A stretch of 64,000 nt of DNA from a virus. Numbering within the stretch: position 1 is the first letter of the stretch; the number at the start of each line of letters is the position of its first letter. Positions 4,801 through 62,465 of this stretch are shown piece after piece. The stretch is from positions 64,967-128,966 of the IMG/VR virus record IMGVR_UViG_3300042505_000752; one strand, 5' to 3'. Both the position numbers and the translations under genes were made by a program. The notes beneath the pieces were generated by a model. It was given only the letters and a program-made list of their open reading frames with translations, did no database searches and was not told the DNA's origin.

Positions 4801-7800
4801 ACTGGAAGCCTCGTACTGGTGGAGATGATGCAGAAAAGCATGAGCGTAGGTTTGGTCGCTACTTTGATTCCGACGGAAACATCAATGCTCGTGGTCGCTT
4901 TGTTAATGGTCAGTTAGAACAAGAGCGAGCAGAAAAGGCAAAGCCTAGGTTTAGCAAGACACCAGAATCTGTGATTCCAGAATCTGGTCGTAGAAAAACA
5001 TCTACTTATAGTTTTGGTAAACTTCAAGTTTTTGGCGAGGATAATAACGGAAGAGTTCTTTGGAAGGACAAAGATGGCTTTGTTATCCCTGACAACATCG
5101 TAAATGATGAAGCCGTACGACAACGCTACATGCGTTATGCAAAAGAGGGGCGAGATGCCTATCTAAATGCAGAATTTGCACGAAATCTTGGCAAAAAAAT
5201 TGATGACCTTTTAGTTAATAACGACCCTGAGAAGCGTCGTGAATTAAGGAATAATCTTCAAAATCTTATTGAAGATCGGCGTTTGTTGATTTCACGAGAA
5301 AACCCTGTTGCGGTTCGTGGTTCGTGGGCTGGGGAATTAGTTGCATTGCAAAATATGCTTAATGAGTTGGATTCTCATCCAAACGCAGTAGATATTTCTC
5401 CAATGAAAAATGAAGGACTTGATTCCTTACCCAAGGCTTCTATTAAGCGTCGCGATTCATCCCTTATTAAATTGCCTGAATTTAAAAAAGAAAAAGAAGT
5501 ATTCGTTCAATATTATGACCTTCGTAATGACAGGTTTAAAGCACATCTTGAAAACGACAGGCTTGATGATGCAAATATCATGATTGAAGGACTTGCTAAC
5601 GAAATTGATGGGCATAACAGGATGCTGGCTGACCCTGCAATGCCTGAAGAAGACAGGGTTAAAATTTTAGCGCGCCGTTCAGCCGCTCTTGAAAAAGTAG
5701 GTAAGTTTAACCAAGATTTGCAACTTCGTATGGATGAAATTAATAAACGAATTGGCGCAGAAAACGCTGCACGATGGGGAATCCCAAGACTTATGACCAA
5801 CCCCGAAGGTAACGCAACTCCAGATAGTGCTGAGGCACGACTTGCAATCCTTGGAAATAATTACCAGATTAAATTTGCAAAAAACATTCGTCTTGAAGGA
5901 GCAAAAGACCGCGCTGCGGAACTTGCAAAAGAAAAAAATGATGGCGAAGGAATCTATGTTACAAAAGATATAAAGAGTGGTAAATTCTTTTTATTAACTC
6001 GGGCTGATTTTGAAGAAGCAGTTAAAAACGATGCTTTTTCTGAAAATTATGTTGTTGATGCTGTCGTCTATGCCGCAAAGACCCCAGCGCCACCAAAGCC
6101 TCCTAGCGTTGCAAGAATTCCTGATTTGAATGATCCGTTTGATGGATTTAAATCGCGTTTTAGTCCTATGGATTTTGATGCGGATGATAAAGATAATCCA
6201 ATCAAGGCAGCAAGAAAATATGCTGTTGAATTTGATAGTGATTTTGTAGTTGCACAACGCTTGAATGATGGTAAGCAATTTGTTCTTGATGCCCGTGACT
6301 GGAACGACTTTGTAAACTCTCCAAAAATAAATAGTGATGATTTTGTCGCCGTAGGTATTTTTGGTGGGTATGGCAAAGATACCGATGGAATGCCCAAGTT
6401 AAATGATGGCAAAAAACGACTTATTGACGAAATGCAAAGTAGAGATTTAGGTCGCGTTTTCCCCAAGGGAAATCGTGTTTTTGGTAGTGGTGATAAAAAG
6501 GCAAGAGAACGCGCTCAAAAATTTGCCAAGCAGGGAGCAGATGATGATGGGCGCAATCGTTATGTTATTGATACGGGCAAACAATACATGGTCGTCAGTG
6601 AAAAAGAATATCAAGAACTACTAGCGGAATTTAACAATAATGAACAACGCTTAAACGCGACGCTTTCTCCCGAGAAGTTTATTAGAGAACGAAAAGGCAA
6701 CAATGCAGTAGGTAGGGATGCCCTTCTTGGTCCTCAACAAATGCCAATTGATGCCGACGAGTACAAGGATGCTGTCATTGCGGTGCATGACGGCAATGGT
6801 GCTATTGACCAAATACCTGATGCACTATTTGCTGCTGTTATATTTGACGAGAATCTTGAAGATACTATTCGTCCCGGAAATAGGGTGGCTCCGCAACCAT
6901 TAATAAATGATGACGGCAGTCAAGCCACATTTGAGGATATTTTTAGTGGACGAATGAAACCAGGCTACGGCGCTGAATTTGAAAACAAACGATTTAAATT
7001 TAAAAACTTTAAAGATGCGGGCGATTCATACGGTGGAATTTGGTCAGTATATAGAGTTGAGGACAAGCAGACTGGAGAAATTTGGTTTATTAAATCTTCC
7101 ACATATGGTGCCAATGACGCAATGCTGGAAGATATCGGCATGGAGGCTGCTGGTATTTTTAATTTTGCCGCCAAGAATGATGCAAAGCAAATAAGAATTT
7201 CCGCTCCGATTGCTGTTGAAAAAAATGGCAGGCAAGTCAGATGGACTGCCATGCGCGATATTGATCAATGGGATGCTCCAAATGGTGAGGCTTTAACTTG
7301 GGTAGATGCTGGCGATGGTGGAAATATTCAAGGGCGAAGTGTCAGCCTTGAAGATATGGCTGCCGTTTTAGTTCTTGACTATGTTCTAGATAACCAAGAT
7401 AGGCATGCAGGAAACTTTAAAATTGCGACTGATTCAAATGGCGTTCAGCGTCTAGGTGTCATTGACAATGGGCTAATGTTTGGCGGACGGGCATATGACA
7501 TGCTTCCACTAAGTCACGATGATGAAGTCACTCCAATGGGTCTTAATGAACTTGCCGAACAAAGAAAAGCCTTAGACCTTGAGGGTTACAAAAAAGGTAC
7601 TGGCCATATCTTATTACGGAGTCTACCAAGTACATTTATTGATCGTCTTCGTCAGAGTCAATTTGATAGAGATGAATTTAATCTTCAGGTAAAATACTCA
7701 ATTGAAACAATGCGAGAAAGTATTGACAGAATTCTTGATGAGCAAAGACTAAAGGGTAAGGGCATTTCACTTAGCGGTACAGAACTAGCACATTTAAAGG

Positions 7801-8327: not shown

Positions 8328-11300
8328 ATGACTACCGATTGCGAAACTTGTCGTCCTCTTGTAAAGGTCATGAACCCCCAGATGTCTACTGACCGCAGGC
8401 GGTTTATGATTGAGAGCAAGGCTGCCGAATATCGCAAACACATGGGTCAGCCGAGCGGTTTGTTGCAAAAGGGTGCTCGGGCAATATTTGACCCTAAACT
8501 TGGTCCGTCTGGTGGATATCGCTGTCCTGAAGGGAGCCAGTTTGGTGGTTACATTACCGACCGCTTCGGCAGAGGCTGTGGTGGGGGTATTATTCGCCGT
8601 GTCGGGCGAGCCTTTGGAAAACTAGGTCGTGGATTAGATAACATTGCAGACAGGCGTGACCGTAGTCGTTTGGGTCGTGCCGTCAATCGCCGTAGCAAGC
8701 CCAATCGCGTTACTCGCGCCGCTGGTGCTCTAGAGCGTGGAGCACAAAGACTTGTTGGCGAATACAAGCCTGGTGACTACAAACCAGGTGACGGCGGTCG
8801 TCGTAATAGGCGCAACCTACCTGGTGGATCATCCCTGAGGCGTTCTGCTGTTCCACGCAAACCTAAGCGTGAACGCAAACTGCCCAAAGACGGGGACAAG
8901 AAGCCTCGCACCCAAGGGGCAACTCCCAAAAAGCGCCCCATTGTTGAACGCGCTGCTGAAGGTCTAGAACGCGCTGCTCAGCGTGTTCTAGATGAAGATC
9001 GCAAGAAAAGAACACAAGGCGCTAAGCCTGCCAAACCCAAGAAGCCTGTTGCTCCTAAGGTTCCTTCGCTGAAGCCAAATCTCTCAGAAGATAAAAAACC
9101 AAACATCACTGACATCAATGATATTGACTGGGATAATTTAACTCCCGAACAGCGTGACGAAATTCAAGGCATCCGTTGGGATGCTTTTAGTGAACTTGAA
9201 GCCGAAATGTCCAAGTACATGGGTGTTCCAGCGGCTCGTATGGACCCTGATGGGTTTGTAAAACGAAATGAAAAAAATAAAAATGTTGAAAAATATGCAG
9301 GGGATGCTCGTAAGTGGAGACAATTACAAAACGACTTTGAAGATATGCCAGCAGAAGCAATTAAAGAGATTGACTGGACCGACGAAGAACGCAAGAAAAT
9401 TCTTGATGTCGTTAATGGGAATGCAAAGCCCAAGAAGCCCAAGACCCGTGGTGCTGACTTCTGGGAACGACGCAAGAATAACAAGCCGATTAAGCCTGAA
9501 GAATTAGATGTTGAAGATGCCCCAGAGATTTTTTCAAGCAAGCCAGACGGCGTACCCGAAAGTGCTCGTAATGTTAAGGCTTGGGAGCAGGCGTTTAAGG
9601 ATGAAATAGATAAGTATTTTGCTGAAAAAAATGTAGATCGCCTTGAAAAATTAAAAAAGACAATAGATTTGATTCTTAACAAAGATGTCATGAATCTATC
9701 TTCTGCTATGCGTCGGATGCTTCAGGAAAAAATTAATGACATAGAGAAAAAGACTGTTGCCCTTCGTGCACGAAAAGCACGAGGTGCACGCACTGCCACA
9801 CCAAAACCAAAACTTCCTAGTCTTGTAGGTAAGCCAGTAAAGCGTAATCCAAAAATTAATCGTATTAAAGATAATGTTATTGATGCTTTGCGTATCAACA
9901 ATATGCGTGACAATGCCATGGGCGACTTTGCACGCGACGCAATTGGCGATGGCTTAATTGCTTTTCCTGAGAATATTTTTAATGATGACATCAAAAATGT
10001 GACAGATGCAGTGAAGTGGCTTGATGATGGAAAATCATTATACGAAATTCCACAACATTATTGGGCTGAAGCAATAAATGAACATGTAGACAGTCGTAAT
10101 CCTGGTCCAAAGCAATATAAAAGAATTGATATCAATAATCCAGGTGCTATGAAATCTATTAACATGTATGAAAAATTAAATCAAGATGGCAGTGGTAGTG
10201 GGACTGGTGTTGTTTTTGCTCGTGCTCCAGGTAATGCACGGGATGGCATGGGCGAAGTTTTAGGTCAGCAAGTCCTCAATGCCCTTGGCATGAATGTTGC
10301 TCCAGCGCGGTTTGATGGAATTGTAAGAGAACAAAATAATGGCAGAGATGTACCAGTTGCTGTAATGCCATTTGCTTGGAACAGGGCTGCTGCTGGAAAA
10401 ATAGACCGAGGTAAGGCTGGTTATAACTTTGACAGGTCTGTCTTTGACCAATTTGAAGATAAAGCGTTACCTATGCGGTTAGCAAATTTATTAGGTAATT
10501 ATTTTATGGGAATTAGCGACAGGCACCACAATAATGGGATGGCAGGGGTTATTGATGGTCAGCCTTATATTGTCCCTATTGACCTTGGGTGGAACGGCAT
10601 AAAAAGAAAATTTTACGAGTATCAAGGCGATGATTGGCTTCATGGATTTTCAATGGACCCCGACTTGGTTGGCGTTATTAAGTCTCATTTAGCAAAACTT
10701 GAACCCAAAGAGGCTGAAAAACAACGCAATAAAATAATTGAAGTTTTTGATGGCATGATCTTACGAGGCGATGCAATACTTGCTCAAGGAAAAGATAAAT
10801 TTATTGAGGATGCCATAGGAATGATGCATCTTGGTGCTGATGCAGTGCCAAATATGCAAATGCGTAATGGAGTTGACAGAAAAGAACTTGAATCTATGAT
10901 GAAAGAAAAAGCATTAGGCATATTTACTGCTATGGAATCCAATATTGCATCATTGAAAAAAGAAAGAACAGATTTATTTGCTAAATGGGGATTAAAAAAT
11001 GCTCCCCCATTAGGAGTTCTTGAAGTAGTTAGCAAACCAAAGCCAAAAAACCCCAAGGCACCTAAGCCAAAAGCGCCCGCCCCTGCAAAGATTACCAATA
11101 ATGTGGCTTCAAAGGGTAAGAAAATTGGACCGCTCCCAGCACTTGTTGTAGCAGAACCACAAAAACGATACAACAAGGTTCCTGTACTTGGTAAAGCATC
11201 TGGAGACAATCCCCTACCAATTCCAGATGACATTGTTAATTCTGAAATTACAAACTTGGATGACGCAGTTAGATGGCTTGATGAGGGTAATCGTATTTCT

Positions 11301-12700: not shown

Positions 12701-13029
12701 TGGCTGAGTATCTTATTTATCATGGCGACTTTGGTTCCAGTATTGACGACCCCGGTCTTATGTCTATTAAGGCTGATGGGGTTAAGTTAACCATTCGTGC
12801 ATCTCGCAACATGATGGAAGAGTGGAAGGGTCGTATTGAAAATTCTAGAGTTTTGCAGGGTTCGGTAAATGACGGTCAAGTAGACCTTGAAAGATATATT
12901 TTTGCTAACAAGTATTCCACATGGACATTCTTTACTCAAGAAGAATTTGATGACTATAAAAAAGTGTATAATTCTGTAAAAGGTTCAACTGTAGTTGTGA
13001 CTATCAAGCCAGAGAAAAAGGGCGACTGA
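12700..13029 (+). CDS. small protein, candidate partner 2
   Basis: TAATG coupling; MAEYLIYHGDFG versus MAQYLIIFGPFG. Confidence 0.75.
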   Translation: MAEYLIYHGDFGSSIDDPGLMSIKADGVKLTIRASRNMMEEWKGRIENSRVLQGSVNDGQVDLERYIFANKYSTWTFFTQEEFDDYKKVYNSVKGSTVVVTIKPEKKGD

Positions 13030-36543: not shown

Positions 36544-36855
36544 AGTTGTCCTTTTCCGTAGTAGTGGCTTACCAGATAAGTATAGCAGATATGTGTAACA
36601 ATTACAACATCTAAATAGATATTTATTAGATTTTTTTTGCGCCGTAACTTATAGGACAAGTATAGCAGATGAGTGTAACAATTACAACCTATTTATAGAT
36701 AAAGTTATCCACAGACTTATCCACAGGCAAAAAATAGGGGGTCATCCGCCACCGTACGAAAAAGAGACACACAGTCCCGTGCCCCAAATCGGGGAGCGGG
36801 GCTATCAACCTTATTGACAAATTCTGTCAATACTTGCAAGCATTAGCCCCGCAAC

Positions 36856-36869
36856 CGAACTAATGTTCG
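36856..36869. promoter_or_regulatory. LexA-type SOS box
   Basis: CGAAC-TAAT-GTTCG, 4 nt before the ATG at 36874. Confidence 0.65.
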
Positions 36870-36873
36870 TAGC

Positions 36874-37239
36874 ATGATCAACCAGAATAAGTGGACAACC
36901 CACATCACAGCACTCCGCTCATATGCGGAACGAACAGGAACTACACGAGTGCCTCGGACTCATGTAGAAAATACAGAGACAGGTGAAGTACGACTCGGCG
37001 CTTGGGTGTCGTATGTTCGTCACCGCCAGCGCAAGGGACACTTGTCCGATACACAAATTCAGGAACTTTCGTCGCTCCCAAATTGGCACTACGAACCACT
37101 GCCCGCAGGACGGACAGGCGACACTGCTCGTGACACCATGATTCAAGCGAGGGCGGAAGATGGCGCACGAGTTCGTGAACTATCACAAGAGTTTGGTCTT
37201 ACTCGCCAGCGGATTCATCAGATCATCTCATCTAAGTGA
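36874..37239 (+). CDS. helicase-associated (HA) domain + HTH protein
   Basis: W......L..Y....G...VP......LG.WV...R...R.G.L...I..L; C-terminal FGLTRQRIHQI. Confidence 0.8.
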   Translation: MINQNKWTTHITALRSYAERTGTTRVPRTHVENTETGEVRLGAWVSYVRHRQRKGHLSDTQIQELSSLPNWHYEPLPAGRTGDTARDTMIQARAEDGARVRELSQEFGLTRQRIHQIISSK

Positions 37240-41045: not shown

Positions 41046-41240
41046 TGGCGAGTCCCACTGCTGAAAGGCGGTGGGACAACCACTTAGTCCCGCTTGGGCA
41101 GTCTCATCCGCCACCGTCATTCATTGGGAGCGCGCGTGCGGGGCTATCTCGGTATCCCCCACCCCTGAAGCCCCGTACCCCCCAAAAATTTCTGGGGGTT
41201 TTCCACAGGCTGGGGATAACCTGTGGATAACTTTGATCCG

Positions 41241-42331: not shown

Positions 42332-42691
42332 GAGCGCAGGGCGGGGGAGGGAAACCTCCCCCAAGACCCTGTGGATAACCTTTATCCACAGCCTGTGGAT
42401 AAACCTGTGGATAACTTTCCCGATAGCCCCGTATATAAAGTGCGGGTGCGGGACTGTCACGATAAATAGTCGTGGAAATTCTTGAATTGAAAAAGCGGTG
42501 CGGGGCTAACAAACTAAATAGCAGGGGTCAAGCCCCTGCCACACTAGTCACTCGGTCCACGAGAACCCGCAGATCCAGCAGAATGTCTGTCATTTTGCCC
42601 GCTTCGGCAATGTTCACTCCCCGCAAATCACGGAGAGTGTCGTCAATGAGATTATAAATCTCCTCGGTTGGCGTGAGTAAATTTAACTCGC

Positions 42692-49892: not shown

Positions 49893-50093
49893 TCACACCC
49901 CTTCGTATTCACGGGCATGAATTGTGTAGCGACCACGGAGGTCTTGGGCGAACTCAACGAGCCAGTGCCCACAGTCATCAAAGGGATACTCACGAGTGAC
50001 CTCAAAAGCGCCACAAGCCTTCCCATTGGTTACGACAGCAGTGACGGTCACTGTGTCGGTTTCTAGATCAACGGAGTATGTCAAGTTATTCAT
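49893..50093 (-). CDS. hypothetical cassette gene
   Basis: Cassette leader. Confidence 0.65.
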   Translation of the reverse strand: MNNLTYSVDLETDTVTVTAVVTNGKACGAFEVTREYPFDDCGHWLVEFAQDLRGRYTIHAREYEGV

Positions 50094-50432
50094 ATGTCTC
50101 CTTTAGTAGTGGTTTTTCCTTACCTAGTAAGTATACACCTAGGGTGTAGCACTTACACCCTTATTTGTGTTACAGAATGGTTACAGATTTATGACGGAAA
50201 TGTAATGGAGAGCCAAAATGCCGATATGGGCAATGTGTCACCATTACACCCTAGAACGCTCTCTAAGCGCCTGACCCCCCTCTCCGCCCCTAGCACCTAT
50301 TCTTGAGCCTGAAACGGCTCAGAGACGATTTCCACAGATTTATACACAGCCTCTGAGCAGGGGAAATGTGGCAAAACCCCAGCGTGAGGGCACTTTTTAC
50401 ATAACCCCTGCTAGTTGGCTTACACACGGTGG

Positions 50433-50771
50433 TTATCCACAGAAGTGACCACTTACCACCAGATTTCACCAGTAGTTATCCACAGGGGTGTGTATAAAGT
50501 TGGGGATAAGGTTATCCACAGGATATCCACAGGGTGTGGATAAAGTAGTTGTACAGTACAAGTAAGTTATCCACAGGGTTGTGGATAAAGTTATCCACAG
50601 GGTGTGGATAAAGGTGTGGATAAAGTTTTCCACAGGGTGTGGATAAACCTGTGGAAAAGATAGTTGTAGTCTACAAGTAAGTTTTCCACAGGTTGTGGAT
50701 AAAGTTGTGGATAAAGTAGTTGTAGTATACAAGTAAGTTATCAACAGGGCTGTGGATAAAGTTGTGGATAA
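50433..50771. promoter_or_regulatory. DnaA-box array (oriC-like or titration locus)
   Basis: 14 exact TTATCCACA (both orientations) plus 7 single-base variants in about 340 bp. Confidence 0.88.
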
Positions 50772-51004
50772 CTTTTCGCTCTGTAAAAAATTCTCTTCCG
50801 CCACCGTCAAAGTTTTAGAAACGAGGGGGCGGGGCTAGTCCCCTACTAATAAGAAGTGAAAAATCTGAACTTATAAAAAAAGCATTAGCCCCGTTTGTTT
50901 TTTCAAGAAGCATTAGCCCCGTTTGACTTTTGAGTTTTCCACAGGTTTTTCCACAGGCTGTGGATAAAGGGGGTAGGGTTTAACCCCCACCCCCACTTGG
51001 TCAC

Positions 51005-51235
51005 TCAGTAGAAATCGGCAGGGGCACAGAAGTGGTCGGCAACACTGCCCTGAATGACATACTCATGAAGTAGTTCGGCGTACTCATCAGACTCTAGGTA
51101 CTCCGCACGAGTCATGCCCGTCTCAACATGAACCCAATTCTCATCAAACATTTCCTCAAACATTGTGGTATCGGGGTAGCGACTCGTGATGTACTCAAGG
51201 TCTGACTCGTAGTAGTTCATATTATATCGTGCCAT
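51005..51235 (-). CDS. acidic Tyr-rich cassette gene
   Basis: Cassette leader. Confidence 0.7.
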   Translation of the reverse strand: MARYNMNYYESDLEYITSRYPDTTMFEEMFDENWVHVETGMTRAEYLESDEYAELLHEYVIQGSVADHFCAPADFY

Positions 51236-51415
51236 TATTTTACTCCCTCTAGTAGTTCCTTACAAATACAAGTATAGCACGCTTGTGTAACTATTACAAC
51301 ATTTATCAACAAATATCTTTGTGACAAAAGACACGCCATACAATGGTGTAAACTCTACACCCCCGTGCTATACTTATGGAGTACGGAAAACCTACTACTA
51401 CAAAAGGGAGACAGT

Positions 51416-51694
51416 ATGAAGTTCATGACCGAAACGCTAGTGACAGACACGCTCTGCTACGAAGTAATTGCCGAGACAGCCAAGACGCTGACAATCAGGT
51501 CAATGGCACGAGGCGAGCAGGTGTACACCGATGGCGCACCATTGCCAGTAATCGGACTCCGAGCAATCTCTGACCCGCACGGGGACACCAAAGTGGTGAG
51601 ACTCCGCAAGGACGGAACTTACCGCAAGGCTCAGGGGTACAACCCCCTACGGTTCACCGAGACCCCAATCTTCTACACGGACTACAAGTTCTGA
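51416..51694 (+). CDS. hypothetical cassette gene
   Basis: Cassette leader; GAAA-loop hairpin at about 51700-51728. Confidence 0.7.
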   Translation: MKFMTETLVTDTLCYEVIAETAKTLTIRSMARGEQVYTDGAPLPVIGLRAISDPHGDTKVVRLRKDGTYRKAQGYNPLRFTETPIFYTDYKF

Positions 51695-51873
51695 AAGATG
51701 GGCGGGGGGCGAAAGCCCCCACTTGCCCACAGGGTTTTCCACAGGGGTGTGGATAACTTTGCGCGAAAAATCCGTGCGGGGCTAAGGGCTTGCCGACGCT
51801 CCCGCTAGCCCCGTTGCCTCAAAATCTGGCGGACTCGCGATATGGACAGAACCCCGCAGGGCTTAGCGCCCCC

Positions 51874-52170
51874 TCAATCGGGGACGCTTGCCCATGCTTC
51901 AACTTCGGTACTGAACTCGCCAAACTCGGAGACAGTACGAACTTCGGTCAGGCTTATGGCTTGACGAACAGTAAAGCGACGCTCACCGTCCCAAGCGAAG
52001 CCGTTAGGGTCTTGCTCGGAAGTGACGAAGTAGCCCGTCTCGCCTACCATGTAGATATCCCCGTGAACTTGTGACGAGAACCATCGCATAGTGCTGTCCG
52101 AGAAAAAGTGGTAGCCAGCGTCTTTACTAGCCTCCACGAACTCGCTTAGTGTCATGGTTGAAATACTCAT
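51874..52170 (-). CDS. conserved small phage protein (G.HFF...TMRWF.S family)
   Basis: Motif; hairpin-type leader. Confidence 0.7.
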   Translation of the reverse strand: MSISTMTLSEFVEASKDAGYHFFSDSTMRWFSSQVHGDIYMVGETGYFVTSEQDPNGFAWDGERRFTVRQAISLTEVRTVSEFGEFSTEVEAWASVPD

Positions 52171-52247
52171 AGTTATCTCCTTAGTAGTTGATGGATAAAT
52201 TATACCGAGGGGGTGTGGCTTAGTTCCCCAAGCCACACCGAAGCCCC

Positions 52248-52415
52248 TCAGAACCGAGGTAGTTGGCTCAGGACATAATCCTCGGCACGGGTGATGTACT
52301 TAGCCGTAACAGCGCCTCGTGCTTTTCTATAAGCGAGGTCATAGATACGGTCAGCAACTTCAAAGCCATGCTTACGGATAAGAGCCTCGTAAAGTTCATT
52401 TTCTGAGAATGTCAT
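52248..52415 (-). CDS. small helical protein, paralog family A
   Basis: LYEALIRKHGFEVADRI; cassette leader. Confidence 0.65.
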   Translation of the reverse strand: MTFSENELYEALIRKHGFEVADRIYDLAYRKARGAVTAKYITRAEDYVLSQLPRF

Positions 52416-52510
52416 TATTTTCTCCTTAGTAGTGGTGACAGATATAAGTATACACCCGCCGAGTGTAGAAACTACAACCATACGGTGTGTCTTTTGTCAC
52501 ACTACCTAAC

Positions 52511-52676
52511 CGAACAGGTGTTCGCACGGAGACACCGAACAAGTGTTCCCCGAACAAGTGTTCCCCGAACGGGTGTTCGTACCGAACGAATGTTCTCCGA
52601 ACAAGTGTTCGCATTATAAAAATACGCACCGACGCATAAAAATACACCGAACAGATGTTCTACGAACAGGTGTTCG
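52511..52676. promoter_or_regulatory. array of 8 LexA-type SOS boxes
   Basis: CGAAC-N4-GTTC with GAAC at 52512, 52537, 52552, 52567, 52584, 52599, 52649, 52664. Confidence 0.82.
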
Positions 52677-52763
52677 CTTGACGAATGTAGACACATTGCC
52701 GCCAAATGTAGCCACATTTTTGGGCGTGGAACAGAGGCGGGGCTATGCCGATAGACTGAGCAT

Positions 52764-54671
52764 ATGAATGGGCAACTAATACTAGGAACGGACACGCTTG
52801 TTGCCGTGTTCCCGTACGATAAGGCGCAAGTTGCGCGGATTAGAACGATACGCGGGGCTGTATGGGACAACGCATCTAAAACATGGCGGATACCCCTTAC
52901 TCAATTCTCCAAGGCAACCGAACTTGCGCTGGAACTTGGCTGGTGGATTAGCCCCGAAGTAGCAATGCTGAACATACCCAGTGAACCCGTGGACATGATG
53001 ACGGTGAACAGCAAAACTGTGAGGCTTTCATTCTCGTTTGACCCAGTAAAAGTGCGTGCGGTGAAGCGGATACCAGGCATAACTTGGGACAAAAAGACGG
53101 CATCGTGGGAAGCCCCGCTCTCATCGCTATCGGAATGTGCTGACTGGGCGAAGCAGTTTGACATGGAAGTAAGCGAAGATACGCAGACGCAAATATCAGA
53201 AATAACCGAAACCAGGTCAAAACTGATTGAGCAATCACGGCAAACAGATGCTGACCTTGAAGTGGCGGGACTACCACTGCTTCCGTACCAAAGAGCGGGC
53301 GTGAAGTACGCTGCTGAGGCACGCAGATGCTTCATTGCTGACGACATGGGACTTGGCAAAACACTTCAAGCAATCGCAACGCTGGAGTATGTTATGGATA
53401 GTTACCCCGCAGTTGTTGTCTGCCCACCCACGCTGGTACTGAACTGGAAGAACGAGTACAACAAGTGGCTACCAGGTAGAAATGTCGTCACGGTGAAGAA
53501 CCGAAGCGAATTCCCAGACGGGGCTTATGATGTTGTCGTCGTTGGTTACTCAAACATCAACGCATGGGCGAACAAACTCCAAAAACACCGAAGTTATGTG
53601 TTTGACGAGTCGCATTACTGCAAAAGTGCTGATGCGCAGCGCACCAAGGCTGCCATCAAGATGGCGAAGTCGGCACCGAAAGAAGGAATTGTTCTTTGTT
53701 TGACTGGTACGCCCGTGACCAACCGCCCCGCTGAATACGCCCCGCAGTTGGACATGCTTGGAAAACTCGCAGACTTTGGGGGCAAATGGGGGTTCTACCG
53801 ACGGTATTGCGCAGCGTTCCGAGACAGATTTGGTCAATGGAACATTTCAGGCAACTCAAACTTGGAAGAACTCAACGACAGGCTTCGCGGAAACTGTTAT
53901 ATCCGAAGAACCAAGGACCAGGTACTGGAAGAACTCCCACCCGTGCGCCACAACACGATCCTGATTGAAGGCACTGATGCGGGGCTGAAGGAGTATCGCA
54001 AAGCAGAAAACGACATCGTGAAGTATCTGATGGAGCGCGCTCGTCAAATTGCTGAAGAACTTGGTGAATCACCGAACTCCGCTGCGGTGCGAGCGAAGAT
54101 GAAGGCAGAACGGAACGAACATTTGATCCGCATCGGCGTTCTTCGGAAGTTAGCCGCCAAAGCGAAGATGCCCGCTGTTATTGAGTGGGTTGACGGGCGC
54201 ATTGAAGCGGGGCAAAAGGTAGTTATCGCCGCTCACCACCGTGAAATCGTTGATGAACTCGCACAGAAGTATGGAAACATAAAGATTCAGGGAGGCATGG
54301 ATGTCAATGATGTGGAAGCAAACAAGAAGATGTTTCAAGAGAAAAGTGTCACGGAAAGCCCCGTTATCGTTCTTTCCATCCAAGCAGCGAAAACAGGTCA
54401 CACGCTGACCGCTTCTCAAGATGTCCTCTTCGTGGAACTCCCATGGACACCGAGCGATGTTGATCAAACTTACTCAAGATGCCACCGACTGGGACAAAAG
54501 GGCAGTGTAACAGCAACTTATCTACTTTGTCAAGGAACTGTTGATGAGCAAATCTACGATGTCATTGAACAGAAGCGTGGAGTTGTCAACGCTGCCACCG
54601 AGGGAATTGAAGTCAGCGGGGCAGGTGGAGAATTGTTTGACTACTACCTCCAACTGTCAATGAAATACTGA
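52764..54671 (+). CDS. SNF2-family helicase with two N-terminal HARP-like repeats
   Basis: LLPYQ, ADDMGLGKT, DESH, LTGTP, YIRR, QTYSRCHRLGQ. TAGACT -10 ends 7 nt before the ATG (likely leaderless). Confidence 0.92.
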   Translation: MNGQLILGTDTLVAVFPYDKAQVARIRTIRGAVWDNASKTWRIPLTQFSKATELALELGWWISPEVAMLNIPSEPVDMMTVNSKTVRLSFSFDPVKVRAVKRIPGITWDKKTASWEAPLSSLSECADWAKQFDMEVSEDTQTQISEITETRSKLIEQSRQTDADLEVAGLPLLPYQRAGVKYAAEARRCFIADDMGLGKTLQAIATLEYVMDSYPAVVVCPPTLVLNWKNEYNKWLPGRNVVTVKNRSEFPDGAYDVVVVGYSNINAWANKLQKHRSYVFDESHYCKSADAQRTKAAIKMAKSAPKEGIVLCLTGTPVTNRPAEYAPQLDMLGKLADFGGKWGFYRRYCAAFRDRFGQWNISGNSNLEELNDRLRGNCYIRRTKDQVLEELPPVRHNTILIEGTDAGLKEYRKAENDIVKYLMERARQIAEELGESPNSAAVRAKMKAERNEHLIRIGVLRKLAAKAKMPAVIEWVDGRIEAGQKVVIAAHHREIVDELAQKYGNIKIQGGMDVNDVEANKKMFQEKSVTESPVIVLSIQAAKTGHTLTASQDVLFVELPWTPSDVDQTYSRCHRLGQKGSVTATYLLCQGTVDEQIYDVIEQKRGVVNAATEGIEVSGAGGELFDYYLQLSMKY

Positions 54672-54780
54672 AATCGCCCCATCCGCCGTATCCATTTGAT
54701 AAACTAGAGGGGCACAGAAAAGACTGCTACTTGCTATCGGCGTATGCGCCTGACCTTATCCACCGAACAACGGAGTAACA

Positions 54781-55338
54781 ATGAAAAAATCAACTGTAGC
54801 GAAGCATTATCTAATACCAATTTCTATCATCGCAAGTGCCATCATGTTCATCTCAAGTACATTTGGAAGTAATTCAAGTAACGCAACATCGGTCTCTATA
54901 ACCCCAACAGAAACCTCAACAACTACTAGCGTTTTGGTAACAGCGCCACCCACCTTAGCCCCGTCAACTACGACGACAACGCTTCTTCCTCCGAACTGGA
55001 CTCCACCGACATTGCCGTCTGATGTCCCATGCCAAGAGTGGACACGGACAGCACTTGATGCTGGCTGGCCATGGGAACTCTTGCCTGAACTACTCCGTGA
55101 AGTGTGGTCTGAGTCTCGTTGTCAGAATGTCATTGAGGGTCACCCACAATGGAATGGACATGACCGTGGACCTCTTCAAATCAACCAAGTTTGGCTTGAC
55201 GACATTGAGGCAAAGTATGGGCACTGGGAAGTGGTCAATGATCCACGCTATAACTTTGCGTGGGCATGGGAGATGTATCGCTGGTACGAGGACCATGGCT
55301 ACTGCGGTTTCAAGCCGTGGTCACGCCCGTGTAAGTGA
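54781..55338 (+). CDS. secreted lysozyme-like transglycosylase (SLT-like)
   Basis: Signal-like N-terminus, Thr linker, W.ESRC...DRGPLQIN. Confidence 0.75.
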   Translation: MKKSTVAKHYLIPISIIASAIMFISSTFGSNSSNATSVSITPTETSTTTSVLVTAPPTLAPSTTTTTLLPPNWTPPTLPSDVPCQEWTRTALDAGWPWELLPELLREVWSESRCQNVIEGHPQWNGHDRGPLQINQVWLDDIEAKYGHWEVVNDPRYNFAWAWEMYRWYEDHGYCGFKPWSRPCK

Positions 55339-55345
55339 GGAGAAA

Positions 55346-55858
55346 ATGAACATATTTAACAAATGGATCATCGGAGTCACCCTCTCCTTCGCAGTCATCG
55401 GCGTTTCCTTATGCGGGACTGCGGACAACAAAGCGAGTGCTGAAAAAATAGTTCCAGCAACAGCACCGATTGACCTTTCGGGAGTGAATTGGACTGAACT
55501 CGCTCGTTTGATGTACGGAAGATGCGGGGAATACCATGACCTCGCCATTGCAGTTGGCTGGAGTGAAGCGCAATGGAAGAAGTTGAGTTTCGTCATGTAC
55601 CGCGAGTCCCGCTGTAACACGATGGCGTTCAACAAAACTGATCCAAACGGCGGAAGTCGTGGACTTATCCAAATCAACGGTTTCTGGTGTAAACCAAGCA
55701 AGTACAACAAATCTGGTTGGTTACAGGCGCAGGGGGTACTCAACACTTGCGAGGATCTGTTCATTCCCGAAGTAAACCTTCGTGCGGGGCTAGCGATGTG
55801 GAACTACAGCCAACAGCGAAACAAGTGCGGCTGGCAGCCATGGGCGACTCGTTGCTAA
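55346..55858 (+). CDS. secreted lysozyme-like transglycosylase (SLT-like)
   Basis: Signal-like N-terminus, YRESRC...SRGLIQIN...NLRAG...GWQPW; GAGGAG RBS. Confidence 0.8.
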   Translation: MNIFNKWIIGVTLSFAVIGVSLCGTADNKASAEKIVPATAPIDLSGVNWTELARLMYGRCGEYHDLAIAVGWSEAQWKKLSFVMYRESRCNTMAFNKTDPNGGSRGLIQINGFWCKPSKYNKSGWLQAQGVLNTCEDLFIPEVNLRAGLAMWNYSQQRNKCGWQPWATRC

Positions 55859-55932
55859 AGTTTCACGGAAGAGTTGCTTTTTCGTAGCGAAGTGTGTATA
55901 ATGATTACAACTACTAACGAAGGGGTGCATTT

Positions 55933-56223
55933 ATGAGTAACTTAAAATACTTTTTAGTGGCGAGCGAGGACTACCCCACGCCCGCACTCATTCTAGAGGA
56001 CAACAACAACTGGGGCGAGGTCTATTGCAGTCGCCACGCCGTTGAGGACACACTGAACCAATTAATTGACGGTTGCTGGTTTGTGGAAGTACCACAAGAA
56101 CTGAGCGACTGTATCACTCACGGTTCGTGTCCTTCTTGTCACGACGAGTATGCAGATGACCTTCGGGAATCCTGCGAGCGTGACCAAGTTGCCCGCTACG
56201 AAGCATGGTTGGAGGCAAGATGA
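55933..56223 (+). CDS. Cys-rich acidic cassette gene
   Basis: Cassette leader. Confidence 0.7.
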   Translation: MSNLKYFLVASEDYPTPALILEDNNNWGEVYCSRHAVEDTLNQLIDGCWFVEVPQELSDCITHGSCPSCHDEYADDLRESCERDQVARYEAWLEAR

Positions 56224-56619: not shown

Positions 56620-57648
56620 ATGGCACATGAACTAGAAATGAAAGCAGACGGAACAGCGAAGTTCGCTTACTCGCTCAAGGGCGGTATCCCGTGGCATCGC
56701 CTCGGAGTCCCGCTTGAAGGTTTACAGACAGTGGACGCAATGCTCAAAGCATCGGAAGCCGACTACGAAGTAAAACTCACCAAAGTGGCGGCAGTTGATG
56801 ATGATGGCAACTTCATTCTTGATGGCAACGGAAAGCCAATCATTATTGAAGATACCCGTGCCACTATCCGAGACAACGGAGATGGAACGCTTGACGCACT
56901 TTCTTCAGTTGGAACTCGCTATGTGGTCAAACAGAACAGGGAAGTAGCAGAACGCGCGCTTGCCGTAGTCGGGGCTTCAGAGGGAGAGGCAGTCGTTGAT
57001 ACCGCTGGCGTTCTTCAGAACGGAAAGCGTTTCTTCATGACCCTTGACTTGGGAGCACTCATCATTGATCCGATGGGCGTGAATGACCGCATTGCTCGCT
57101 ACCTCGTTGTATCCACGGGACATGACGGAGTGTGGCCAGTTCGCTACGCAAATACCGACATTCGTGCTGTTTGCAACAACACTGTTCGCCTTGGACTCAA
57201 GGAAGCAGAACGAGTGTTCGTAGCACGACACACAAAGAACATGGACTCAGCGTTTGACGATGCGAAAGAAGTCTTGCGCATCAGCGTTGACTGGGCGAAG
57301 AACTTCAAGGTCATGGCAGAGGAGATGCTGTCTATCGCAGTCCCGAAAGATTCAGGCAAGGTGGACAAGGTTCTCAACCGAGTCTTCCCCATCAAGAAAG
57401 ACGAGACGGATCGCCAACGCACGAATCGTGAACGCACGAACATGATTATCCGTTCACTTTACGAATCGGACAAGAACGCTGGTGGTTTTGGACATAATGG
57501 CTGGAGCATGTATAACGCCATTGGCGAATACCTTGACCATCACCGAGACGCAGAGTTAGATGAGCGAGCATTTGCTTCACTTGACGACAACTCATGGGTG
57601 ACACGCATCAAGTTGGAAACCCAGCAGGCTGTTCTTTCACTAGTCTGA
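56620..57648 (+). CDS. DUF932-family phage/plasmid protein
   Basis: MAHELE...PWH.LG; Y...QN; GKRFF; RAVCNNT; W..YNA..EY.DH. Confidence 0.88.
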   Translation: MAHELEMKADGTAKFAYSLKGGIPWHRLGVPLEGLQTVDAMLKASEADYEVKLTKVAAVDDDGNFILDGNGKPIIIEDTRATIRDNGDGTLDALSSVGTRYVVKQNREVAERALAVVGASEGEAVVDTAGVLQNGKRFFMTLDLGALIIDPMGVNDRIARYLVVSTGHDGVWPVRYANTDIRAVCNNTVRLGLKEAERVFVARHTKNMDSAFDDAKEVLRISVDWAKNFKVMAEEMLSIAVPKDSGKVDKVLNRVFPIKKDETDRQRTNRERTNMIIRSLYESDKNAGGFGHNGWSMYNAIGEYLDHHRDAELDERAFASLDDNSWVTRIKLETQQAVLSLV

Positions 57649-58385: not shown

Positions 58386-58844
58386 ATGTCAGCATCACCG
58401 ACAACACTTACAGGAAACCTTGTTTCAGATCCCGAACTTAAGTTCTTGGATAATGGAACAGCGAAATTATCAGGCTCTATTGCCGTTGGTCACTATTGGA
58501 CAGACGCATCGGGCGAAAAGCAAGAAAAGACTTCATTCATTGACTTCGTTGCATGGCGCTATCTTGCCGACGACGCAGCACGAGTGTTGGAAAAAGGCGT
58601 TCGTATCATTGTTACGGGTCGTCTTGAACAGCGTTCGTGGGAACAAGACGGGGCTAAGCGAAGCAAGGTTGAACTTATCGCTGACGACATCGCTGTCGCA
58701 GTGAAGTCAATTGAGTCGTTTGACCGTCGCCGTGCTGGTGAAAAGGGTGCTGTTGCGCCGAAGCCCGCAGCCGCTAAGCAGGCACAACGCACTGCGTACA
58801 AAGCACCGACACAATCCGTAATGGAAGATGCCGAGCCGTTCTGA
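58386..58844 (+). CDS. ssb: single-stranded DNA-binding protein
   Basis: GNLVSDPEL, T.F.D.VAWR.LA, KG.R.IVTGRL.QRSW, C-terminal EPF. Confidence 0.93.
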   Translation: MSASPTTLTGNLVSDPELKFLDNGTAKLSGSIAVGHYWTDASGEKQEKTSFIDFVAWRYLADDAARVLEKGVRIIVTGRLEQRSWEQDGAKRSKVELIADDIAVAVKSIESFDRRRAGEKGAVAPKPAAAKQAQRTAYKAPTQSVMEDAEPF

Positions 58845-62308: not shown

Positions 62309-62465
62309 TTCTTCGCTATCTACCGATAGCCCCGTACTCGCCACATACTCGGATTTTTTTATGACGGACTTTTACATACTCGGATTTTTTCAGTACGGGC
62401 TTTTATGCGAAAAAAAAGTTATCCACAGGCTGTTGATAAACCTGTGGATAACTCTCATTGCTAGA

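Follow-up and report, generated by a model that had tools for sequence, protein, structure and literature searches.

Eight LexA-operator-like boxes in tandem in a divergent control region of a lake phage genome, a possible LexA-sensing element

Co-option of host LexA is textbook knowledge for temperate phages, plasmids and integrons, in which it triggers induction. On the E. coli chromosome, datA, a dense cluster of high-affinity sites, titrates DnaA, and no LexA equivalent of this locus is known. In the betatectivirus GIL01/Bam35, host LexA acts at dinBoxes of promoter P1 together with the phage proteins gp7 and gp6 (PMC4551915, PMC6182141), and in colicin operons close LexA sites bind several dimers, giving tight repression that is released late (PMC2994835). 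LexA sites were also sought in actinobacterial tectiviruses, and none were found (PMC6950372). Virulent phages can carry sites for host master regulators, as seen in the Spo0A boxes of phi29 and in the CtrA boxes associated with 'lytic deferment' (PMC9437464), and a preprint on the DnaA boxes of coliphage T5 proposes DnaA-mediated arrest of injection, with no mention of LexA (bioRxiv 10.1101/866236). Our literature search found LexA use in temperate elements (GIL01, colicins), and neither LexA-box arrays in virulent phages nor a LexA decoy. The operator consensus described for mycobacterial and Streptomyces LexA is TCGAAC-N4-GTTCGA (PMC3381160) or tCGAAC-N4-GNNCGa (PMC9380542).

The locus that we compare with these systems is found in a 128,966-bp IMG/VR virus record, estimated to be 87% complete, whose right half, a stretch of 64 kb (hereafter the window), was analyzed. 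Eight exact CGAAC-N4-GTTC boxes lie at 52511-52676, starting at 52511, 52536, 52551, 52566, 52583, 52598, 52648 and 52663, with box-to-box spacings of 25, 15, 15, 17, 15, 50 and 15 bp. They form two blocks separated by an AT-rich spacer, as listed here (in this and the following lists, the strand is given where one applies):

52511..52611: block A, six LexA-type boxes (sequence, motif scan, Tandem Repeats Finder)
52511-24: block A, box 1, CGAACAGGTGTTCG
52536-49 and 52551-64: block A, boxes 2 and 3, CGAACAAGTGTTCC
52566-79: block A, box 4, CGAACGGGTGTTCG
52583-96: block A, box 5, CGAACGAATGTTCT
52598-611: block A, box 6, CGAACAAGTGTTCG
52612..52647: spacer of 36 bp, AT-rich, containing CGCA(TTA)TAAAAATAC twice (CGCAyTAAAAATAC)
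52648..52676: block B, two boxes, CGAACAGATGTTCT at 52648-61 and CGAACAGGTGTTCG at 52663-76
57207..57220: isolated box within the DUF932 gene, differing from the 14-mer at one base
58433..58446: isolated box with one mismatch, within the SSB gene (58386-58844), in its 5' part

Over the 64-kb window, CGAAC-N4-GTTC gives 16 strand matches, compared with 0.53 expected from dinucleotide-preserving shuffles (shuffle maximum 3), and the eight boxes and periods that the first-pass annotation had reported as exceeding chance were confirmed as exact matches. Tandem Repeats Finder describes the array by a 15-bp unit, CCGAACAAGTGTTCC. Half of the boxes (4/8) are perfect 14-mers (CGAAC-N4-GTTCG), the other four have a mismatch at the last base only, and the outer T and A of the 16-mer (TCGAAC-N4-GTTCGA) are mostly missing. 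The eight units show 13 differences, all of them confined to five variable positions (the first three spacer positions and the flanks); the last spacer base (T) and the nine bases of the core are the same in 8/8 units, an outcome with a chance of ∼6e-7 if changes were evenly spread. The cores of the array boxes are conserved while the remaining positions drift. A scan for degenerate boxes between 52380 and 52800 found none beyond the eight, and in the whole 129-kb record boxes are confined to 101.8-123.4 kb.

The array occupies part of a 348-bp gene-free stretch between a leftward gene (ATG 52415) and a rightward helicase gene (ATG 52764), and the following features flank it:

52248..52415, minus strand: 55-aa gene, first of the leftward one-gene cassettes; no Pfam match
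52447-52452, minus strand: TATACT, -10 of the leftward 55-aa gene, 59 bp from box 1
52486..52501: CRP-like box TGTGTCTTTTGTCACA (TGTGT-N6-TCACA), flanked by the leftward promoter and box 1
52684..52718: two palindromes, AATGTAGACACATT and AATGTAGCCACATT (AATGTAGnCACATT type), 21 bp apart, after TTGACG (52678-83)
52752..52757, plus strand: TAGACT, probable -10 for a leaderless mRNA of the helicase, 76 bp past the array; ATG 52764 follows after 6 nt
52764..54671, plus strand: SNF2-family helicase with a HARP-like N-terminus (Pfam PF00176, 2.8e-27; Helicase_C)

The helicase, whose best cultured relatives are Arthrobacter phage helicases (31-35% identity), is the first gene of a rightward replication/recombination block, and two secreted SLT-like proteins, DUF932 and SSB are encoded to its right. 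Its leaderless geometry is repeated in L009, a 145-kb record with a 99%-identical helicase locus, and in L014 (TTGTCA-N17-TAAGAT-N7-ATG). Neither of the recognizable -10 elements (TATACT, TAGACT) is overlapped by any array box, the gaps being 59 and 76 bp, and the earlier statement that the array stops about 75 bp before TAGACT (52752), clear of the helicase -10, was correct. A scan of 52200-52900 for consensus promoters and terminators detected no promoter in the array or the AT-rich spacer, and a weak terminator-like hairpin in the spacer only. The array showed no overlap with a recognizable -10, in contrast to a single box at 36856 that is described below. The AT-rich spacer is kept in L009, where it reads TTGATA-N17/18-(A)TAAAAA, and could be either a tract that melts easily or a weak candidate promoter with box 6 on one side and box 7 on the other. 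The AATGTAGnCACATT palindromes beside the array, which are unique in the window and likewise kept in L009, may be the site of another factor, and a CRP-like box similar to the one at this locus stands alongside the array of L032. Searches of cultured phage records by megablast (51000-56000) or blastn (array) gave no match.

Other readings of the repeats were tried and rejected. An Rfam search of 50000-53500 returned no known RNA family, and a fold z-score of -3.1 reflects the palindromes only. A leaderless ORF across the array (ATG 52614, minus strand) translates the repeats, and its ATG is missing in L009. The half-sites are in reverse order to those of parS, and the two ParB_N genes are ∼65 kb off. 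Iterons of a replication origin bound by a phage initiator would be expected beside the initiator gene and an AT-rich tract, and such a tract of 36 bp is present, but the repeat is the host LexA operator and no neighbor gene is common to the 111 viral loci considered below.

To compare the boxes with those of potential hosts, one genome per prokaryote species was scanned for two boxes 15 bp apart, which yielded at least 120 loci, mostly from Actinomycetota. Among the 120 matches listed, 39 have lexA within an 8-kb stretch, and at 36 of these 39 lexA loci the tandem boxes precede the aligned LexA N-terminus by 100-335 bp, the side being correct for genes on either strand. This placement just upstream of lexA indicates that tandem boxes phased at 15 bp are the operator by which actinobacterial lexA natively regulates itself; in one host genome (G046) four boxes precede the gene. 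The first spacer base, which the search pattern left free, is a purine in 94% of the host lexA-proximal boxes (n = 101), in 92% of the viral boxes (n = 373), and in 8/8 boxes of the window. Of 151 Actinomycetes genomes sampled, 149 have a LexA above the curated cut-off, and these include genomes of 1.4-1.5 Mb (the tally counts five unpublished genomes, G056, G071, G076, G079 and G084, which contributed no sequence to the present analysis, and is 145/146 minus these). Six complete Actinomycetes genomes of 1.38-1.50 Mb carry TCGAACACTTGTTCGA and a degenerate second box before lexA, and the core of TCGAACACTTGTTCGA is identical to boxes 2, 3 and 6 of the window. Each of these six streamlined genomes, which are host-like and may not include the phage's own host, has 3-5 perfect palindromic boxes in total, with the spacers AAGT (at lexA), AGAT and AGGT, which are shared by 6/8 of the phage array boxes.

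The phage genome itself also points to such a host. It encodes two WhiB proteins above the Pfam cut-off, a level reached, among 14 control genomes, by Corynebacterium alone. WhiB marks actinobacteria and their phages, and the host is, judging from the gene content, actinobacterial. The first-pass assignment of the boxes to the actinobacterial LexA consensus is therefore strongly supported by the host lexA-operator test, the shared spacer preference and the WhiB genes, and the array boxes would be genuine actinobacterial LexA operators in both sequence and layout. It is very probable, on this resemblance, that host LexA binds the array. The likeness to the actinobacterial lexA operator (PMC3381160, PMC9380542) extends to the 14-bp palindrome, the purine/pyrimidine spacer rule, the 15-bp phasing and the position between divergent genes; the differences are that hosts have one to four boxes rather than eight, that the virus is without lexA, and that there is no visible promoter overlap in the array.

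The window contains one further perfect box, which is placed differently:

36856..36869, plus strand: single perfect palindromic box CGAACTAATGTTCG, ending 4 nt before ATG 36874
36874..37239, plus strand: gene whose 121-aa product combines an HA domain with a sigma-70-region-4/Mor-like helix-turn-helix at its C-terminus (domain search)

The center of the 36856 box, TAATGT, fits the actinobacterial -10 pattern TANNNT, with the ATG 7 nt on. A homologue of the 36874 protein (L082:153-533) matches HA, Sigma70_r4 and Mor, and the product is a putative phage transcription regulator under LexA control. The identical CGAACTAATGTTCG box is found before the same gene in G008, G025 and G003, and in an unrelated contig (L073, 7077-7500) the homologous ATG comes exactly 4 nt after the end of a tandem pair, the last box of which carries TAGTGT. 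The 36856 box thus appears to have the layout of a leaderless promoter occluded by LexA, conserved in two phage lineages. Boxes that lie in a promoter depart from the purine-first spacer rule, as a -10 is built into them, whereas 8/8 array boxes obey it and contain no TANNNT, and the different spacers suggest ordinary LexA repression at one gene and an array that is built differently.

The location of the 36856 box also raises the idea that a phage protein, e.g., the HA-HTH product, binds the boxes instead of host LexA or in competition with it. A box preceding the HA-HTH gene 36874 could mean autoregulation, HA-HTH genes are found at most ∼700 bp from boxes in 8 of the 13 HA-bearing records, and in GIL01 SOS-like sites are bound by a LexA-like protein of the phage (PMC6182141). 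However, HA-HTH is present in only 13 of the 45 array-bearing records tallied below and in only 3 of the 19 near-complete ones, and it was rejected as a general box binder; host lexA promoters from many actinobacterial families show this motif in this tandem layout; and the array-bearing contigs span 33-71% GC without a common neighbor gene. We consider binding by a phage protein very improbable.

Comparison with related genomes showed that the number of boxes is not fixed. L009 carries the same array with six boxes, i.e., two 15-bp units fewer, and a complete 128.6-kb record with terminal repeats (L032/L024) has a homologous array of five boxes (spacings 24, 15, 15, 17), immediately followed by about ten DnaA boxes; block A accordingly corresponds to 4 boxes in L009 and to 5 in L032/L024. 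In the more distant L012 (59% helicase identity), DnaA boxes directly adjoin an array of four boxes, of which two are flanked by the full TCGA. No boxes were found in the sequenced stretch of L010 (80% helicase identity) or upstream of the helicase in L014 (55%). The array is conserved in relatives with a changing copy number of 8, 6, 5 and 4.

Beyond these relatives, the tandem pattern was detected in 111 viral stretches of IMG/VR, compared with 8 for a control consisting of the same pattern read backwards. Most of the viral arrays hold 2-4 boxes, with 3-6 common, and the eight boxes of the window are the largest number found. Gene content was tallied in the 45 array-bearing viral records of at least 29 kb:

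WhiB: 32/45 array-bearing records
LexA DNA-binding domain: 2/45 array-bearing records
HA-domain protein: 13/45 array-bearing records
Tyrosine integrase: 0/45 array-bearing records
Serine recombinase: 1/45 array-bearing records

Among the array-bearing records that are at least 90% complete, 0/19 have a tyrosine or serine integrase, and no neighbor gene is conserved across the 111 loci, the largest cluster being WhiB with 12 loci. The prevalence of WhiB, the lack of a common phage protein and the lack of integrases suggest that the shared factor is the actinobacterial host and that these phages do not integrate. Tandem LexA-operator arrays would then be widespread among phages that lack integrases (111 viral contigs; 0/19 near-complete records), mostly actinophages. 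When the high-GC array of L097 was used as a blastn query, Gordonia phages were matched, among them Outis (OR159651.1), which has three boxes at 59.46-59.52 kb, two of them perfect and one degenerate, in the divergent region between genes 78 and 79, no further box in its 68 kb, and no tyrosine integrase in a search for that type. Gordonia phages such as Outis, with its three boxes, offer a cultured, testable analogue. In two other phages (G009, G034), boxes are scattered over many intergenic sites.

The lifestyle of the phage bears on how LexA might be used. Profile searches of the phage record found neither LexA_DNA_bind nor Peptidase_S24, and no tyrosine or serine integrase and no HTH_3 (Cro/CI-type) repressor scored above cut-off in the record or in five large relatives. 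Two ParB_N-domain proteins (frames of 261 and 206 aa) are encoded outside the window, at G000:C1:50261-52478; the gene content gives no sign of a temperate or plasmid-prophage lifestyle of the GIL01 type, although a plasmid-like state would be compatible with the two ParB_N proteins. The comparison with GIL01 made in the first-pass annotation therefore holds for the use of host LexA and fails for lifestyle. Both are phages without a CI-type repressor of their own, and both have several adjacent SOS boxes of the Gram-positive type for host LexA, a use that is predicted for the present phage; GIL01, however, is a temperate linear plasmid prophage with boxes over its promoter, unlike the present phage, whose eight boxes are off the -10 elements and in which neither integrase nor HTH_3 was found. 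With no integrase or repressor found, there is no obvious decision left for a damage switch to control.

The phage was found in 23 lake-water metagenome DNA runs, and a single RNA run, labelled marine, contained only short contigs of relatives. One RNA contig starts at 52748 and, having 20 mismatches, marks no start site of this phage. Public short-read contigs from several lake metagenomes break within 52535-52564 (the DNA contigs at 52541), and because these breaks are caused by the repeat, the copy number of the array in the population is unreadable from assemblies.

As the strong sites of the array outnumber those of an entire small host genome, the virus probably either reads LexA or drains it. 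We favor the first of these and tentatively regard the array as a LexA-sensing control element, an enlarged version of the tandem, 15-bp-phased operator of host lexA, with a probability of roughly 45%. When the phage genome enters, LexA dimers would occupy its array cooperatively; the activity of the flanking promoters, and perhaps the start of replication, would then depend on the level of free LexA, and release would follow either cleavage of LexA in the SOS response or its dilution over many phage genomes. The position of the array is consistent with such a role, since it lies where the leftward early cassettes diverge from the rightward helicase/SSB block, as in host lexA regions and in Outis. 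The motif and layout are equal to those of the host lexA operator, and the 36856 box sits on the -10 of a phage regulator gene. A phage-encoded LexA is absent, no phage binder stands out, and the tandem pattern is enriched in viruses (111 vs. 8), in some of which (G009, G034) the boxes are spread over many intergenic sites. Precedent for strong repression by grouped sites comes from the colicin operons, in which two overlapping SOS boxes give very tight repression (PMC2994835). The array resembles these operons in its close LexA sites, and differs in having eight boxes upstream rather than two boxes on the promoter. It also resembles phi29 and the CtrA phages in that early promoters or replication regions are accompanied by several sites for a global regulator of the host, which would allow the state of the host to be read, and differs from them in that LexA, so far described for temperate elements, is the regulator and that the sites are packed head to tail and not spread over promoters.

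Several observations fit a control element less well. No array box is on a recognizable core promoter (gaps of 59 and 76 bp, with the promoter scan empty), eight sites far exceed the needs of any known operator, and the copy number differs between 99%-identical genomes without other change, which suits dosage better than geometry. These same observations raise the possibility that the array is a sponge, with the multiplying phage genomes soaking up a small host LexA pool so that the host SOS regulon, comprising repair, recombination and division arrest, is turned on for the benefit of the phage, and any effect on the flanking phage promoters is secondary. The 8+1 strong phage boxes would outnumber the 3-5 perfect boxes per streamlined Actinomycetes genome (host-like, and not necessarily the host), and, as for a decoy, the sites are many, strong, more numerous than the cell's own and off promoters. 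The array avoids promoters, the sole promoter-overlapping box having a different, -10-bearing spacer; copy number varies (8, 6, 5, 4); integrases are found in 0/19 near-complete array-bearing records; and the same genome has ∼27 DnaA boxes in 535 bp, which is likewise beyond regulatory need. Such a sponge would resemble datA in acting through its capacity to bind a limiting regulator, and would differ from it because datA is chromosomal and binds DnaA. On the other hand, our literature search found no precedent for a DNA decoy of LexA, titration would be buffered because lexA is autoregulated, most viral arrays hold only 2-4 boxes, and both the fixed place of the array in a divergent control region and the boxes scattered between genes in G009 and G034 look regulatory. 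A titrating role is possible but doubtful as the principal function. We accordingly rank the control element first, with titration of LexA as a close rival or a second function, the readings not being mutually exclusive. Of the two functions put forward in the first-pass annotation, a cooperative damage switch would draw support from the 36856 box, and a LexA sponge from the surplus of array boxes over whole streamlined genomes and from the lack of integrases in phages with such arrays.

A scheme in which the two functions are combined is unlikely; it casts LexA as a replication-coupled timer of a virulent phage. On entry, a few LexA dimers would occupy the array and the box covering the -10 of the HA-HTH gene (36874); the replicating eight-box arrays would then drain the LexA pool of the streamlined host, and the phage regulator and the host SOS regulon would be switched on together, without DNA damage. 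If this were so, the arrays would, with the neighboring DnaA arrays, represent a class of phage DNA elements that capture host master regulators. More generally, if LexA binds, virulent phages would time their program by the SOS state of the host, or reset that state by DNA titration alone, and neither was found described in our literature search. In abundant lake actinobacteria, with tiny genomes and few SOS boxes, one infecting genome would double or triple the LexA sites of the cell.

DnaA boxes are the second class of host-type sites in the window, and their main cluster is close to the LexA array:

50433..50967 (535 bp): array of ∼27 DnaA boxes matching TTATCCACA with at most 1 mismatch; the LexA array is 1.5 kb to its right

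Five small clusters are located at 36705-36725, 41199-41230, 42370-42414, 51735-51756 and 62419-62451, and the whole window has 53 DnaA-box matches compared with 16 expected. In other phages the two types of site are in direct contact, with LexA boxes adjoining DnaA boxes in L012, L032, L028, L077, L079, L038 and L126, and a zero-gap junction, GTTC|TGTGGATAA, in nine places. At least three DnaA boxes are present within 500 bp of 19/128 viral arrays, all at loci retrieved by LexA boxes alone, compared with 2.5% of locus bases as background, and a DnaA cluster is near 0/121 bacterial arrays. Coliphage T5 (NC_005859, L274) shows a similar pairing in its first-step-transfer DNA, where two perfect LexA boxes of the E. 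coli type, CTGTATAAATATACAG, are found at 6213 and 9411; each adjoins DnaA boxes (6194-6228 and 9411-9460), and the second is inside the annotated injection stop signal. The LexA motif thus changes with the host while the DnaA pairing stays, which points to host proteins in both T5 and the actinophages. T5 is like the present phage in being a virulent phage of ∼120 kb whose gene-free control DNA combines host DnaA boxes and LexA boxes of the host type, and unlike it in having single E. coli-type boxes beside DnaA pairs instead of a LexA array 1.5 kb from a DnaA array.

These pairings invite the suggestion that LexA beside DnaA boxes forms a docking module acting on the DNA itself, either gating a DnaA-dependent origin or holding or pausing the entering genome. 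Such a module would account for the 19/128 viral arrays with DnaA clusters (2.5% background; 0/121 bacterial), the nine zero-gap junctions, the adjacent LexA and DnaA arrays of L012 and L032, the AT-rich tracts beside arrays, and the T5 boxes at 6213 and 9411, one of them in the injection stop signal. In the window, however, the LexA and DnaA arrays are not adjacent, being 1.5 kb apart with genes in the gap, 85% of viral arrays have no nearby DnaA cluster, and the T5 injection-stop model is itself a proposal. A docking role at the present locus is quite unlikely, and a LexA-sensing control element remains our preferred reading.

Some further sequence features were recorded near LexA boxes or elsewhere in the window. 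In the lexA upstream regions of the six 1.4-1.5 Mb Actinomycetes genomes (L268-L273), inverted DnaA-box-like words, TT(A/T)T(C)CCACAnCCTGTGGAA, are present between the second box and the lexA ATG, suggesting that the host lexA control region may also combine LexA and DnaA sites. Palindromes of the TGTTAGGCATGCCTAACA type flank LexA arrays in unrelated viral contigs (L086:7580-7700, 10330-10460 and 12900-12980; L055:340-360; L077:1280-1300; L079:10310-10330) and may be sites for a further factor. An inverted repeat, GTGAGAC...GTCTCAC, fills the 48-bp gap in the three-box arrays of one contig family (L019, L063, L069, L118, L049, L119) and stands after the array in L032. Within the window, the octamer CGGGGCTA occurs at 26 sites between 31183 and 62334, compared with 0.75 expected, on both strands and both inside and between genes; it is often part of gtgCGGGGCTAa, one copy lies 6 nt before the helicase TAGACT, and two copies flank the 36.8-kb island.
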